From positions 20,587 to 84,586 of the forward strand of contig JAHDQN010000040.1 in the NCBI GenBank assembly GCA_018433775.1: 64,000 bases of DNA, read 5' to 3'. The notes beneath the pieces are model-generated. The model did not search any database, was not told the DNA's origin, and worked only from the letters and a program-made list of their open reading frames with translations. Below are positions 4,312-25,299 of this stretch, piece by piece. The DNA is from Deltaproteobacteria bacterium. GTDB lineage: Bacteria; Desulfobacterota; Desulfomonilia; UBA1062. The first letter of the stretch is position 1. Each line of letters opens with the position of its first letter. The position numbers and the translations under genes are program-made.

Positions 4312-5937
4312 CTACCCCGCCCTGCTGTCGCGGTACGTGCAGCCCGCCTTGATGAAATCGCGGAACAGGGGATGCGGCTGCATGGGCTTCGACTTGAACT
4401 CGGGGTGAAACTGGCAGCCCACAAACCACGGATGATCCGGGAGCTCGACGATCTCCACGAGCCCGGTCTCGGGATTGCGGCCGCTGATGATCAGGCCCTT
4501 TTCCGAGAGCTGCCTCTCGTAGGCGTTGTTGAACTCATAGCGGTGCCGGTGGCGCTCGGAGATCTCGCTGCTCCGGTAGGCGGCCATGGCCTTCGTGCCC
4601 TGGCTCAAAGCGCAGCGGTACGCCCCGAGGCGCATGGTTCCGCCCTTTTTCGTGATGAGCCTCTGGTCCGGGAGATAGTCGATGACCGGGTCTTTCGTGT
4701 CCCGATCGAACTCGGTGCTGTTGGCTCCCCCGATGTTGCTTACATGCCTGGCAAACTCGACCACCGCGAGCTGCATGCCCAGGCAGATCCCGAAATAGGG
4801 GATGCCGCTGGTCCTGGCATACCGGGCGGCCCTGATCTTGCCTTCGATGCCCCGGTCTCCAAACCCGCCCGGCACCAGGATGCCGTGGATGTCTTCAAAA
4901 TGGCGGGAAATGTCGTCTTCGGAATTCAGGGCCTCGGCGTCCACATACACCCGGTTCACCCGGGTGCCGTTGAACAGCCCCGCGTGCTCCAGGGCCTCGT
5001 TCAGGCTCTTGTAGGAGTCGGTGAGCTTCACATACTTGCCCACCACCGCGATGTTGACCACTGCGGTCCGGCTGTCGAAGGTCTCGATCAGCTTTTCCCA
5101 GCCCTGCATCCGGGGCTCGCGGGTCCACATGTTCAGATATTCGACGATCCTCTCGTCGAGCCCCTCGCGGTGAAACTCGACCGGCACCTGGTAGATGTTG
5201 CCCACGTCGATGGCATTGATGACCGCGTCCTTCTCCACGTTGCAGAAGAGCGCGATCTTTTCCTTGAGCTCGGTTGAGAGCCGCTTTTCTGAGCGGCACA
5301 GGAGGATCTGCGGCTGGATGCCGATCTCGCGCAGCTTCTGGACCGAGTGCTGGGTGGGCTTGGTCTTGAGCTCGCCCGCTGTGGGGATGTAAGGAACGAG
5401 GGTGAGGTGGATGTACAGGACGTTCGACCTGCCCATGTCGAAGCCGAACTGCCTGATCGCCTCCAAAAAGGGGAGCGACTCGATGTCGCCCACGGTCCCC
5501 CCGATCTCCACGATGGCGATGTCGTAGCCGCCCGCAGCCTCGACGATGCGGCTCTTGATCTCGTTGGTGATGTGGGGAATCACCTGGACGGTCTTGCCCA
5601 GGTACTCGCCGTTGCGCTCCTTCTGGATCACCGAGTCGTAGATCTGCCCGGTGGTGAAATTGTTTTTTGCGGACAGGGGCGAAGAGGTGAAGCGCTCGTA
5701 ATGCCCCAGGTCGAGGTCGGTCTCGGCCCCGTCGTCGGTCACGAAGACCTCACCGTGCTGAAACGGGCTCATGGTCCCGGGGTCGACGTTGATATAGGGG
5801 TCGAGCTTGATGTTGGTCACGGTCAGCCCCCGCGCCTCCATAATGGCGCCGATGGACGCGGCTGCGAGGCCCTTGCCGAGGGAGGAAAGCACGCCTCCGG
5901 TGATGAAGATGTACTTGGTTGATTTCTTATGCGACAT
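4312..5937 (-). CDS. pyrG: CTP synthase
   Basis: [23 protein letters not shown] at the N-terminus and the GATase motif GICLGMQ. I chose the ATG at 5937 (AGGTG RBS 6 nt upstream) over the track's GVG-type start at 5946. Confidence 0.95.
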
Positions 5938-6085
5938 GATATGCACCTACCGTAGAGATCTGTGGGCCGTCAAGCCACGGACGCCCCGGGTTAACGCTCC
6001 AAGCCTGCACATAAATTCCATAACGACTCTCCCCAAAACTTCGTGCCCGTAATCGCAATCATGCAGTCAAAAAAAACTCTTGAAA

Positions 6086-6120
6086 ACTGCTTGATATTTC
6101 GCATGCGCACTTACGGCAAC
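6086..6120 (-). promoter_or_regulatory. Conserved 35-nt element, copy 1; reads as a sigma-70-like promoter on the minus strand (-35 TTGCCG, 17-nt spacer containing CGCATGCG, -10 TATCAA) upstream of pyrG
   Basis: ACTGCTTGATATTTCGCATGCGCACTTACGGCAAC is nearly identical to 25586-25622. Both copies sit in intergenic DNA upstream of minus-strand operons. Confidence 0.35.
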
Positions 6121-22521: not shown

Positions 22522-22570
22522 GCGTCCGCCCCCCGATGTCCGGGTGTTTTTTCTGTCATGGCCGGGCACC

Positions 22571-24205
22571 TCACACCACATACCTGATCTGAAGACGCTC
22601 GGCCGCATGAAAGTCGTCGATGCCGAGCGCGTCGGACATGCCGATGGGAAGAGAGGTGGACCTTCCCATGGGCGCGAGGATCTTCTTGAGTTCGGCGTCA
22701 AAGCTCAAAAACACGTCGACCAGCCGCCCGGCCACGTCTTCGGGGTCGAGCCTGCGGTAGAGTCTGGGGTCCTGCGAGGTGATCCCCTTGGGGCATCGGC
22801 CGAGGTTGCAGATGTTGCACCGGTCCCCCTCCGAACCGACGCACCCGGCCGCCGCCTGCATGAGATATTTGCCCACCTGAACCCCGCTTGCACCGAGCAT
22901 GATGAGCGCAGCGGCATTTGCCGCCAGGTTGCCGTTCTTTCCCGCGCCTCCTCCGGCGAAGAGAGGGATCTCGTTCTGCTTGCCGATCTTCACCAGGTTC
23001 AGGTATGCGTCTCGCACATTGGCGGCGATGGGATGGCCCATGTGGTTCATGGACACGTTGTATGCCGCTCCGGTTCCCCCGTCCTCGCCGTCGATGGCCA
23101 AGGCCGCCGCGTACCGGTTGCGCGCGATGTTGTTGAGCACGGCGGTCGTGGTGCTGGTAGCCGATATCTTCGGGTACACCGGCACCCTGAAGCCCCATGC
23201 CATTGAGAGCGACTGGATCATCTTGGCCACGGACTCCTCTATGGAGTATTTGGTCTGGTGCGTGGGCGGCGAGGGCAGGCTCACCCCGGGCGGCACCCCC
23301 CTGATGGCGGCGATGAGCCCGTTCACCTTATGCCACATGAGCAGCCCGCCGTCTCCGGGCTTGGCGCCCTGGCCGTACTTGATCTCGATGGCGCAGGGGT
23401 CTTCCTTCATCTCTGGCAGGGCGTGGATGATCTCGTCCCAGCCGAAATACCCGCTCGCGATCTGGAGGATCACATACTTGAGAAACCGCGACCTGAGCAG
23501 CCGCGGCGGGCACCCGCCCTCGCCCGTGGATATCCTCACGGGCATGCCAAGCTCCTCGTTCAGATAGGCCACGCCCATCTGGAGCCCCTCCCACATGTTC
23601 GGGGAGAGTGCCCCGAACGACATGCCGCCCACGATCAGGGGATAGATCTCCCGCACCGGTGGCGCCCATCCGTCCTCTTTTGCCGAGTTGAGGATCTCCT
23701 CGGGAGGCAGGATGCGCCCCAGGAGGGTCCTGAGCTCGAACTCGTGCCTGCCGGCGTCCAGGGCCGGGTCGGTGAGCATGGAGATGCGGACGAACTTGAT
23801 GCGGTCGAGCACGCTTGCCGTGTCGTTCCGCCTGCCTCCCCGCCGCCTCGGCTCTCCGCCCTGGTTGGCATGAAACTTCAGCTTGTCGGTCTCCTCGCTC
23901 CTTACGGGGAATATGGCGGAGTTGGGGCAGACGAACGAGCACATGCCGCACCCCACGCAGGCATGTGCCGGGTCGGTTTTCTGGTCGATCCCGTAATAAA
24001 CGCGGTAGACGTTTCCCGGCCTCTCGCCCAGGCCCATGAGAACCGGCACCTCCCGCCTGCGGTGCACGCCGAGCTCGATTGCCCTCACCGGGCACACCGC
24101 AGTGCACTGTCCGCACAGGGTGCACCGGTCCCTGTCCCAGCAGACGCGCCAGGGCAGGTCCCTGGGGCTCAGTGCAGATGGGTGCAGGGTTCCCATTGGC
24201 TCCAT
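22571..24205 (-). CDS. Glutamate synthase FMN/central domain (GltB domain 2) with N-terminal 2x[4Fe-4S] ferredoxin
   Basis: From the ATG at 24205 (GGAGG RBS). Cluster motifs are CTLCGQCTAVCP and CVGCGMCSFVCP. The FMN domain shows GGMSFGALS, KPGDGGLL and FAGGGAG. It overlaps the upstream gene's end by 37 nt. Confidence 0.85.
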   Translation of the reverse strand: MEPMGTLHPSALSPRDLPWRVCWDRDRCTLCGQCTAVCPVRAIELGVHRRREVPVLMGLGERPGNVYRVYYGIDQKTDPAHACVGCGMCSFVCPNSAIFPVRSEETDKLKFHANQGGEPRRRGGRRNDTASVLDRIKFVRISMLTDPALDAGRHEFELRTLLGRILPPEEILNSAKEDGWAPPVREIYPLIVGGMSFGALSPNMWEGLQMGVAYLNEELGMPVRISTGEGGCPPRLLRSRFLKYVILQIASGYFGWDEIIHALPEMKEDPCAIEIKYGQGAKPGDGGLLMWHKVNGLIAAIRGVPPGVSLPSPPTHQTKYSIEESVAKMIQSLSMAWGFRVPVYPKISATSTTTAVLNNIARNRYAAALAIDGEDGGTGAAYNVSMNHMGHPIAANVRDAYLNLVKIGKQNEIPLFAGGGAGKNGNLAANAAALIMLGASGVQVGKYLMQAAAGCVGSEGDRCNICNLGRCPKGITSQDPRLYRRLDPEDVAGRLVDVFLSFDAELKKILAPMGRSTSLPIGMSDALGIDDFHAAERLQIRYVV

Positions 24206-25299
24206 CTCCTGACCTCCATCCGCGAGGCATCCACACAGGCGAGGTCGTATTTCATGGGCTGGAATTCGCAGTTTCCTTCCCGGACGGGAATGGCCCCGTC
24301 GAGCCCGCACATCTCGGAAGAGAAGGCGAACATCCCGGGCCTGCCTCCCACAACGCCCGGCCTGAGTTTCTTGCTGTCGTGGACCATGAAGAGTGTCTTG
24401 TCGGGCAGACACCCGATCACACAGTTGGGCCCGTCGATGGTGAGAAAACGGCAGCCGTGCTTGAGCCTTCTCAGAAACGCACTGTCCGGGTGCCTGGTCA
24501 GCTCCTCGTCCTTGAGCGGGGTGATGATGTGTTTGTAGGCATCGATCCCGAGCCCAAGCCGGTTTGCGGTGTAGTGCAGGATATGGGTGAACACCTCGGA
24601 GTCAGACTGATAGCCCGCATATCCGGGAAAACCCCGCGACATCAGATAATCCCGTATAGGCCCGAACGCGGTGTTCTCGCCGTTGGTCATGGTGGCGAAG
24701 CCCTGGAGAAAGAAGGGGTGGCAGGCATAGAGGGTAACGGCATAGTTGGTGTTCTGCCTGCCCTGGGCCATGATCACCCGCGCCTTCAGACTCTTCCGGT
24801 CGAGCCCGAGATATTCGGCTATGGCCAGGGGATCGCCTACTTCCTTGATCATGATCGTGTCCGGCCAGAAGGAAAAGACCATCATGGACCCGTCCTGCTC
24901 GCCCAGCCTCCTCAGGTCGATCCGGATCCTCATGAGCCGCGCCGCGATCTCGGCCTCGCTCAGGCCCTCCCACTCGAAAGGATACTCATACACCCGGATG
25001 AGGTACACGTCGCGTTTCGGGGTGCCCTCGGGCGGCTCCTTGGCGGGCCTGATGGAAAGCTTGAACTTGGTGAGCAGGCCCAGCTCCATCATGTAGCGAT
25101 CGAGCCTCTTGATCCCTTCCTGGGAGAAAACGCCCGAAAGGATGGGAGAACCCCTGAACTGTTCCAGGTCCCCGCCGAGGTCGGTCATGAACAGGCCGAC
25201 CCCGGAACCGTCGTGGCCTTCTTTCATGACGTCCAGGGCACGCAGGGCGACCATGGGCGAGAGCGGCTCGTTACTCGTTATGGCGAACAGACGGCACAC
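24169..25299 (-). CDS. Glutamate synthase glutamine amidotransferase subunit (class-II Ntn, GltB domain 1 type)
   Basis: I propose the GTG start at 25297-25299, which puts Cys directly after the initiator (M-CRLFAITSNEPLSP), as Ntn amidotransferases require. AAGGAGGA lies upstream. The track start at 25392 is rejected. Confidence 0.75.
   Translation of the reverse strand: MCRLFAITSNEPLSPMVALRALDVMKEGHDGSGVGLFMTDLGGDLEQFRGSPILSGVFSQEGIKRLDRYMMELGLLTKFKLSIRPAKEPPEGTPKRDVYLIRVYEYPFEWEGLSEAEIAARLMRIRIDLRRLGEQDGSMMVFSFWPDTIMIKEVGDPLAIAEYLGLDRKSLKARVIMAQGRQNTNYAVTLYACHPFFLQGFATMTNGENTAFGPIRDYLMSRGFPGYAGYQSDSEVFTHILHYTANRLGLGIDAYKHIITPLKDEELTRHPDSAFLRRLKHGCRFLTIDGPNCVIGCLPDKTLFMVHDSKKLRPGVVGGRPGMFAFSSEMCGLDGAIPVREGNCEFQPMKYDLACVDASRMEVRRWSQWEPCTHLH

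Follow-up and report, generated by a model that had tools for sequence, protein, structure and literature searches.

The stretch of DNA considered here, called the window, comprises 64 kb of contig JAHDQN010000040.1 from a Desulfomonilia-type bacterium (Desulfobacterota). At 4312-25299 it harbours eleven co-directional genes in which the production of glutamine is strung onto its consumption. In transcription order, three genes of a split glutamate synthase (GOGAT) are followed by glnA for glutamine synthetase (GS), carA for the glutaminase subunit of carbamoyl-phosphate synthetase (CPSase), a giant relative of the gene for glucosamine-6-phosphate (GlcN-6-P) synthase, here called giant GlmS, genes for a left-handed beta-helix (LbH) protein, GlmM and a NagB-like protein, and finally carB and pyrG. 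With moderate confidence, we regard this array as selectively maintained and as controlled segment by segment. Its components are all of known kinds; the consolidated array, the insertion of an amidotransferase gene between carA and carB, and the giant GlmS with its sensor-like domain are undescribed variants, and searches of the literature on this cluster, on amidotransferase arrays and on GAF-bearing GlmS found no description. Glutamine is the main nitrogen donor of the cell, and the way in which bacteria ration it among nucleotides, cell wall and cofactors is known mostly at the level of single enzymes. An array that joins GS-GOGAT to CPSase, GlmS and CTP synthase suggests that glutamine spending is coordinated at the level of the genome in Desulfobacterota, a phylum important in anaerobic digesters and sediments.

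Gene content of the array

The gene map of the window was drawn from third-position GC content (GC3) together with Pfam and NCBIfam scans. Gene calls and domain scans agree with an earlier note on this DNA, which had named all eleven genes, their order and their minus-strand orientation, had placed pdxST, hisF and amtB-glnK-glnD just beyond the array (Table) and had put about 7.8 kb between carA and carB: the distance from the carA stop to the carB start is 7.85 kb, with four genes between. The count of five contiguous amidotransferase systems has to be corrected, as the interval holds four and GS, while the fifth, PdxT, lies outside it.

The product of the first gene is an N-terminal nucleophile (Ntn) amidotransferase whose GTG start is backed by a family of 376-aa proteins and by a conserved ribosome-binding site. 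Searches of Pfam, NCBIfam and PDB sequences gave no significant match for it. The family is highly conserved and carries the name glutamate synthase (domain 1) at NCBI and JGI. A structural model of poor quality, at a predicted local distance difference test (pLDDT) value of 55, had four significant Foldseek matches, all of them GltB/GltA alpha subunits (E 5e-5 to 6e-4). The putative GOGAT identity of this gene draws on the source names, the context and the low-confidence fold match. The FMN domain (PF01645), the GXGXG domain (PF01493) and the GltD-like flavoprotein of glutamate synthase are all present. As in the archaeal-type split glutamate synthase, the putative glutaminase, the FMN module and the GXGXG module each reside on a polypeptide of their own, and ferredoxin-type clusters are part of the FMN subunit. 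Unlike there, GXGXG is joined to a GltD-like NAD(P)H flavoprotein that has an additional 2x[4Fe-4S], and the putative glutaminase subunit is too diverged for Pfam GATase_2.

Two products of the amino-sugar module are less canonical than GlmM. The LbH protein matches NCBIfam GlmU models at E 5e-14, over profile positions ~232-442 only and far under the cut-off, and PDB GlmU at E 0.014; Pfam, NCBIfam and PDB searches found no nucleotidyltransferase (GlmU uridyltransferase) domain, which leaves the protein short of a full GlmU. Its C-terminal ~170 aa extend beyond the half that resembles the GlmU acetyltransferase. The NagB-like protein matches TIGR00502 in two stretches around an insertion of ~45 aa and stays below the equivalog cut-off for NagB.

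Table. Features of the window, listed from the array outwards
Feature	Positions	Strand	Basis or remark
Ntn amidotransferase, putative GOGAT glutaminase subunit (MCRLFAIT..., 376 aa)	24169-25299	-	376-aa family; GTG start
GOGAT FMN/Fe-S subunit, N-terminal 2x[4Fe-4S] ferredoxin module	22571-~24205	-	PF01645 E 5e-59, Fer4 families
Fusion of GXGXG, GltD-like NAD(P)H flavoprotein and C-terminal 2x[4Fe-4S]	20188-~22521	-	PF01493, PF14691, PF07992, PF12838
glnA, type I glutamine synthetase	18808-~20139	-	TIGR00653 521 bits, cut-off 429
carA, CPSase glutaminase subunit	17333-18493	-	TIGR01368 474 bits, cut-off 307
Giant GlmS-like amidotransferase, 1243 aa	13499-17230	-	SIS, GATase_6/7
Giant GlmS, conserved leader (aa 1-45)		-	
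Giant GlmS, Cys46	17093-17095	-	
Giant GlmS, helical insert (aa ~60-215)		-	
Giant GlmS, two SIS domains (aa ~590-910)		-	
Giant GlmS, helical insert (aa ~915-1025)		-	
Giant GlmS, C-tail motif AIRHQAKTVTVGTSR	14105-14152	-	
Giant GlmS, C-terminal alpha/beta domain (~190 aa)	13526-14083	-	weakly GAF-like
LbH protein	12213-~13436	-	weak GlmU C-terminal match
glmM, phosphoglucosamine mutase	10795-12165	-	TIGR01455 586 bits, cut-off 448
NagB-like GlcN-6-P deaminase/isomerase homologue	9759-10751	-	PF01182; TIGR00502 131 bits, cut-off 237
carB, CPSase large subunit	6272-9481	-	full CPSase_L domain set and MGS
pyrG, CTP synthase	4312-~5937	-	PF06418 E 3e-127, GATase
Sigma-54 type -24/-12 element TGGCACGGATTTCGCT	25338-25353	-	39 nt before GTG start of first GOGAT gene
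Two upstream dyads GAACAAAATTGTGC, GAACATTATTGGAA	25489-25531	-	centres 29 nt apart, ~140-175 nt upstream of -24 element
GC-rich stem-loop (ACCGGCCCGG...CCGGGCCGGG then GTTTCT)	18762-18793	-	directly after glnA stop
39-nt repeat, two direct copies and one inverted	18609-18702		glnA-carA spacer; can form 24-bp hairpin
~90-nt element, GOGAT upstream	25560-25650	-	core GTGCGCATGCGAAATAT
~90-nt element, carB-pyrG spacer	6060-6150	-	core GTGCGCATGCGAAATAT
Counterpart of CCTTGACA box, GCTTGACG	5975-5990	-	
pdxR, MocR type	within 25785-28602	-	divergent from pdxS-pdxT
pdxS-pdxT	27098-28602	+	Pfam/NCBIfam scans
NifA-like enhancer-binding protein (GAF, AAA+, HTH)	28708-30228	-	Pfam GAF, Sigma54_activat, HTH_8
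Dyad TCAACAATATTTAG	32977-32990	+	before amtB
Dyad GAACAATATTGTAC	33007-33020	+	before amtB
Perfect sigma-54 promoter TGGCACCCCCCTTGCT	33087-33102	+	before amtB
amtB-glnK-glnD	33149-37300	+	PF00909, PF00543; TIGR01693 571 bits
hisF	37395-38174	+	after glnD

Conservation and related arrays

Relatives were gathered by a scan seeded with the GlmS-like protein, with one genome per species, which yielded 80 loci of +/-10 kb around the GlmS-like gene, nearly all from metagenome-assembled genomes of Desulfobacterota. A look-up of the exact carB sequence among public assemblies gave no record. The order carA-GlmS-carB is kept in at least 17 species-level genomes of uncultured, Desulfomonilia-type relatives; in nine of them LbH-glmM-nagB accompanies the giant gene, in eight it is missing. 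At least six relatives, whose GlmS-like proteins are 57% to 92% identical, preserve the entire series that begins with the GOGAT amidotransferase gene and ends with pyrG, and in 9 of the 17 the gene of the NifA-like activator lies directly upstream of the GOGAT amidotransferase gene. Because these 17 genomes keep carA-GlmS-carB, the array is not chance; the earlier note had asked for synteny in related genomes and taken its lack in every relative as the mark of a chance juxtaposition, and the arrangement proved to be conserved. Its statement that carA and carB are split by an amino-sugar module is true of this genome, but in relatives the minimal splitter is the giant GlmS-like gene alone and LbH-glmM-nagB is optional. 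As the module-present and module-absent states interleave along the identity scale, the module appears to have been gained and lost repeatedly at exactly the junction of the giant gene with carB, with the rest of the array undisturbed.

When set beside the E. coli-type carAB operon (PMC6245113), the two subunits are the same, intact and co-directional. Here, however, carA does not immediately precede carB: the pair is split, by 3.9 kb where the giant gene stands alone and by 7.85 kb in the window, the split is conserved in the 17 species, and one relative has guaA between the two genes. Split or spaced carA and carB also occur in Pseudomonas, Neisseria and epsilon-proteobacteria, where no amidotransferase gene is known to be inserted between them.

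The giant gene is also found in other company. Syntrophales-type genomes show the order pdxT-(LbH)-GlmS-(LbH-glmM-nagB)-guaA-pyrG, with pdxT detached from pdxS. At locus L045, GlmS-purF-carA-guaA-carB form five consecutive amidotransferase genes, and it is here that guaA splits carA from carB; this array spans 13-9742 of a 9.7-kb contig labelled Acidobacteriota. The giant gene is convergent with guaA-purF at L023 and part of the series glnA...GOGAT-GlmS...hisF-pyrG at L036. A further amidotransferase gene lies within 10 kb in 47/80 loci. These parallel arrays of sister lineages, with PdxT, GuaA and PurF, are a pointer in the same direction as the array of the window. Because the giant gene sits in differently composed amidotransferase arrays of other lineages, the organising logic appears to be the co-location of glutamine-dependent enzymes around giant GlmS.

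Might the order be a historical accident, inherited in one clade as a row of independent units devoid of functional coupling? The full order was seen in only one clade (GlmS-like identity 56-92%) and the units have separate spacers, as this explanation would have it. We nevertheless hold it to be highly improbable, given that LbH-glmM-nagB has come and gone at one junction without breaking the array, that at least three differently composed amidotransferase arrays surround the same GlmS in other lineages, and that five or more glutamine systems would fall within 11 genes with P ~1e-6 under random placement, assuming 3500 genes and 16 such systems.

A second alternative places the logic in the envelope: carA, GlmS, GlmM, LbH, carB and pyrG would supply UTP/CTP and N-acetylglucosamine 1-phosphate (GlcNAc-1-P) for UDP-GlcNAc and the envelope, and the adjacency of GOGAT-GS would be incidental. 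The most frequent partners of the giant gene are indeed LbH (32/78 loci) and glmM (20/78); in Desulfobacterales it follows PBP-DegT-FeADH, a wall and amino-sugar context, and guaA and pyrG make nucleotides that activate sugars. On the other hand, pdxT, purF, hisF and GOGAT-GS are not envelope genes and share glutamine as their common denominator, the GOGAT-glnA-carA junction is conserved at fixed short spacing, and the module encodes no uridyltransferase (the N-terminal half of GlmU). We judge this explanation unlikely, although it retains more weight than the accident of descent.

Promoters, hairpin and spacers

The GOGAT-glnA block is headed by a conserved, putative sigma-54 promoter and paired GAACAATATTGT dyads. 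The promoter element is one of only three relaxed sigma-54 matches in the window, and in 13/13 relatives with the gene an element of the TGGCACGGATTTCGCT type is located 52-62 nt ahead of the start codon, with GGAGG and then GTG, in one relative ATG, behind it. Of 14 aligned GOGAT upstream regions, 11 have the motif AACAATATTG or one of its variants; the dyad consensus derived here, GAACAATATTGTTC, occurs in one or two copies ~30 nt apart and ~140-190 nt further upstream, again in 11/14 sequences. An identical promoter-plus-dyad design, 8 kb away, precedes amtB-glnK-glnD, where the window's only other good dyad match (one mismatch) and a half-site 30 nt from it lie 67-110 nt ahead of a perfect sigma-54 promoter, the true amtB start being 33149.

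Between the two operons is the gene for the NifA-like enhancer-binding protein (EBP), which has GAFTGA at residue 265. It reaches 518.7 bits against the NifA model TIGR01817, just under the cut-off of 528.85 and short of an equivalog assignment, and no nif genes lie within the window. The upstream activating sequence (UAS) of NifA is TGT-N10-ACA, whereas the dyad found here is ACA-N4-TGT. All the marks of a sigma-54 promoter, namely GG-N10-GC at fixed spacing, an upstream dyad and an EBP with GAFTGA, are present at the sequence level. Because the two operons have the same promoter-plus-dyad design and the activator gene stands between them, they can be read as one nitrogen regulon: that GOGAT-glnA and amtB-glnK-glnD share a sigma-54/UAS regulon is shown at the sequence level, and the NifA-like protein is the candidate activator of both promoters. 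A TGGAAT...TGCA sequence upstream of pyrG was rejected as a sigma-54 site, as its GG-to-GC spacing in the alignment is N9 and not N10.

A related regulon has been predicted for Desulfovibrio vulgaris, of the same phylum, in which the single-component EBP DVU1949 would control amtB-glnK, glnA and the three-gene GOGAT DVU1821-1823 (PMC4641369). The two cases have in common an EBP devoid of a receiver domain and sigma-54 promoters before amtB-glnK, glnA and a split GOGAT. They differ in that GOGAT and glnA are here fused in one unit that continues into carA, GlmS, carB and pyrG, and in that the activator gene is directly upstream of its target in most relatives.

Within the array, 7/10 junctions measure <=102 nt, most of them ~40-100 nt. 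The larger gaps are glnA-carA with 311 nt, nagB-carB with 277 nt and the stretch from carB to the preferred pyrG ATG with ~334 nt. A stem-loop of -26.3 kcal/mol (z -2.8) directly follows glnA, and a hairpin is found there in 12/12 relatives with variable sequence and 9 consensus pairs, 3 of which show compensatory changes. This hairpin is most likely a partial terminator or a stabiliser of the mRNA 3' end. In most relatives the glnA-carA spacer has 75-110 nt and only ~35-50 nt separate the hairpin from the carA start, and this short distance favours read-through from glnA into carA, which is plausible; it is likewise plausible that the consumption half of the array, from carA onward, is co-regulated through such read-through.

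The extra length of the spacer in the window is made up of copies of a 39-nt repeat that is lineage-specific: L005 has three direct copies and one inverted, and the repeat is absent in L003, L039 and L002. A ~90-nt element (Table), located both upstream of GOGAT and in the carB-pyrG spacer, was ruled out as a common operator since the close relatives L005 and L003 lack this insertion; inserted at both sites when compared with close relatives, it behaves like a small mobile repeat. Scans of the whole window for tRNA and with Rfam gave no matches, hence no known riboswitch or leader, and the number of predictions from a generic promoter and terminator scan was not above that for shuffled sequence.

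These data bear on the proposal that all eleven genes form a single 21-kb operon, transcribed from the sigma-54 promoter of the first GOGAT gene and jointly induced under nitrogen limitation. Co-directionality, the predominance of short junctions, the little room left for a promoter between hairpin and carA in most relatives and the lack of any other sigma-54 promoter in the relatives' 23-kb loci all agree with it. The proposal has to contend with the conserved hairpin after glnA, with carB and pyrG spacers whose proximal segments are conserved, including a conserved TTGACA box before pyrG, with lineage-specific repeat insertions tolerated in three spacers, and with the physiological oddity of inducing pyrimidine and amino-sugar synthesis specifically under nitrogen starvation. 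We find it distinctly unlikely. The idea of a co-regulated hub, raised in the earlier note, is only partly supported: GOGAT-glnA and amtB-glnK-glnD share the promoter and dyad design, none of these sites precedes carA, carB or pyrG, a conserved hairpin stands behind glnA, and carB and pyrG follow long gaps with conserved promoter-proximal parts.

The giant GlmS and the proposed organisation

The giant GlmS is twice the normal length, with a family range of 1215-1260 aa. Its family is annotated merely as 'SIS domain-containing protein' or GlmS, and a literature search on it found no paper. Alignment to 1JXA shows the glutaminase residues R73, W74, N98, G99 and D123 (E. coli numbering) to be kept and nearly invariant in 41 members. 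The isomerase residues are kept as well (the QSG.T.DT loop, VASTKAF, K485, E488 and H504), and the C-tail AKTVTVG with the Schiff-base lysine (K603), part of AIRHQAKTVTVGTSR, is invariant, but internal and not C-terminal. Also conserved is the nucleophile motif CGLAGI, in which Cys occupies residue 46 after a conserved leader. Changes concern the sugar-phosphate loop (S347 to Thr, E351 to Thr) and T76/H77, replaced by Ser/Val.

In comparison with GlmS/GFAT (E. coli 1JXA, 4AMV; human GFAT1 6R4E), the giant form has the same Ntn glutaminase and two SIS domains, the catalytic residues and the C-tail lysine motif. To these it adds the 45-aa leader, two helical inserts, of which one (~155 aa) interrupts the glutaminase domain and the other (~110 aa) precedes the C-tail, and, behind the C-tail, a sensor-like domain of ~190 aa that is found only in the giant GlmS family. 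Structural matches of this domain include the GAF domain of PtsP (3trc, 3ci6). Leader, inserts and C-terminal domain may be regulatory add-ons.

Because every catalytic residue checked is retained and the gene is in close linkage with a glmM of equivalog grade and with the gene for a GlmU-type acetyltransferase half, the protein is most likely the working glutamine:fructose-6-phosphate amidotransferase, that is, the GlcN-6-P synthase, of these organisms. It could instead act on another ketose phosphate as an amidotransferase or isomerase, or be a paralogue that is regulatory or inactive, as might be suspected from its score of 219 against 418 bits, its double length, the substitutions listed above, a Cys that is not N-terminal and the NagB-like gene of the module, which would create a futile cycle with a true GlmS. 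The invariance of the catalytic and Schiff-base residues and of the C-tail motif in 41 family members, together with the gene linkage, renders this quite improbable.

The EIIA-Ntr cascade starts with EI-Ntr, a GAF-bearing protein. A protein-level precedent for a link between nitrogen status and the synthesis of GlcN-6-P comes from the nitrogen phosphotransferase system (PTS-Ntr) of Salmonella, in which EIIA-Ntr binds and inhibits GlmS (PMC5024086). The analogy is functional only, for in Salmonella a separate sensor and enzyme are joined by a phosphorelay, whereas here enzyme and sensor-like domain form a single polypeptide. In a bolder version, giant GlmS would be a metabolite-sensing hub whose inserts and GAF-like domain bind glutamine, 2-oxoglutarate or UDP-GlcNAc and/or dock amidotransferases, and the arrays would serve the joint production and control of a glutamine-spending assembly whose members are physically associated; we rate this version as very unlikely.

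The organisation that we favour, a selectively maintained array under segmental control, would work as follows. Segment 1, the split three-gene GOGAT with glnA, would be driven by the sigma-54 promoter with its two upstream dyads, and the NifA-like activator encoded between it and amtB-glnK-glnD would serve both as one nitrogen regulon. At the junction, the glnA hairpin would partially terminate transcription or stabilise the 3' end, and carA-GlmS-LbH-glmM-nagB would be expressed at least partly by read-through and at a lower level. This second segment would pair carA and giant GlmS with the split-GlmU-like acetyltransferase, GlmM and the NagB-like enzyme, which could provide a route from fructose 6-phosphate to GlcNAc-1-P. 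Segments 3 and 4, carB and pyrG, each behind a longer spacer with a conserved proximal part, probably have their own start sites. The add-ons of giant GlmS may place it under the allosteric control of a metabolite indicative of nitrogen or amino-sugar status. With its private sensor-like domain, the double-length family offers a testable candidate for a novel way of controlling amino-sugar synthesis.

Several points weigh against this reading. Neither sigma-54 sites nor dyads were found before carA, carB or pyrG, in the window or in relatives, or before the Syntrophales-type arrays. The post-glnA hairpin has a weak U-tract and was missed by the terminator scan. Both the carB spacer (277 nt) and the pyrG spacer (~334 nt, to the preferred ATG) are long, their promoter-proximal segments are conserved, and 7/13 group-A relatives with a placeable pyrG start have a conserved CCTTGACA box ~38 nt upstream of the ATG, all of which hints at separate starts. 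The giant GlmS stays at 219 bits against the TIGR01135 glmS cut-off of 418, below equivalog level, and at 245 bits against the NF001484 cut-off of 381; with an internal catalytic Cys, maturation would require removal of a 45-aa propeptide. Since the GlmS-like gene served as the seed for the loci, sampling is biased and phylogenetically non-independent and the counts are descriptive rather than a test. Transcription-unit boundaries in the array are deduced from sequence only. If the CCTTGACA-type box, whose window counterpart is GCTTGACG, is a -35 box, the pyrG mRNA would be nearly leaderless.

Beyond the 5' end of the array, where a PEP-utilising-type protein is also encoded, insertion of the pdxR/pdxS-pdxT module between activator gene and GOGAT operon is limited to this genome and the two relatives closest to it, L001 and L005. 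The hisF gene behind glnD has no adjacent hisH; in L036, hisF is immediately ahead of pyrG. Two plus-strand open reading frames (ORFs) of 436 and 444 aa at 40767-43511 have coding-type GC3 and no Pfam match at E <= 1e-5. At 43633-47576, ~26 kb from the array, glucokinase is encoded next to a bifunctional transaldolase/phosphoglucose isomerase (NF007080, 1186 bits), and the two are suppliers of fructose 6-phosphate, the substrate of GlmS.

Immediately downstream of pyrG, at 1-3899, lies a foreign islet of low GC content (0.39 vs 0.61) with four minus-strand ORFs, among them genes for a DUF4145 protein (PADLOC PD-T7-4, E 1e-8) and a DEDDh exonuclease-BRCT protein (PADLOC PDC-S48, E 2e-28). In the closest relatives, synteny breaks off at ~3899. 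At the islet edge, 3923-3960, stands a perfect 38-nt palindrome, TTGCAGCAAAAGTTGCTATATAGCAACTTTTGCTGCAA, which is also present 3' of pyrG in L001, L003 and L005 and could be a terminator or an integration site.

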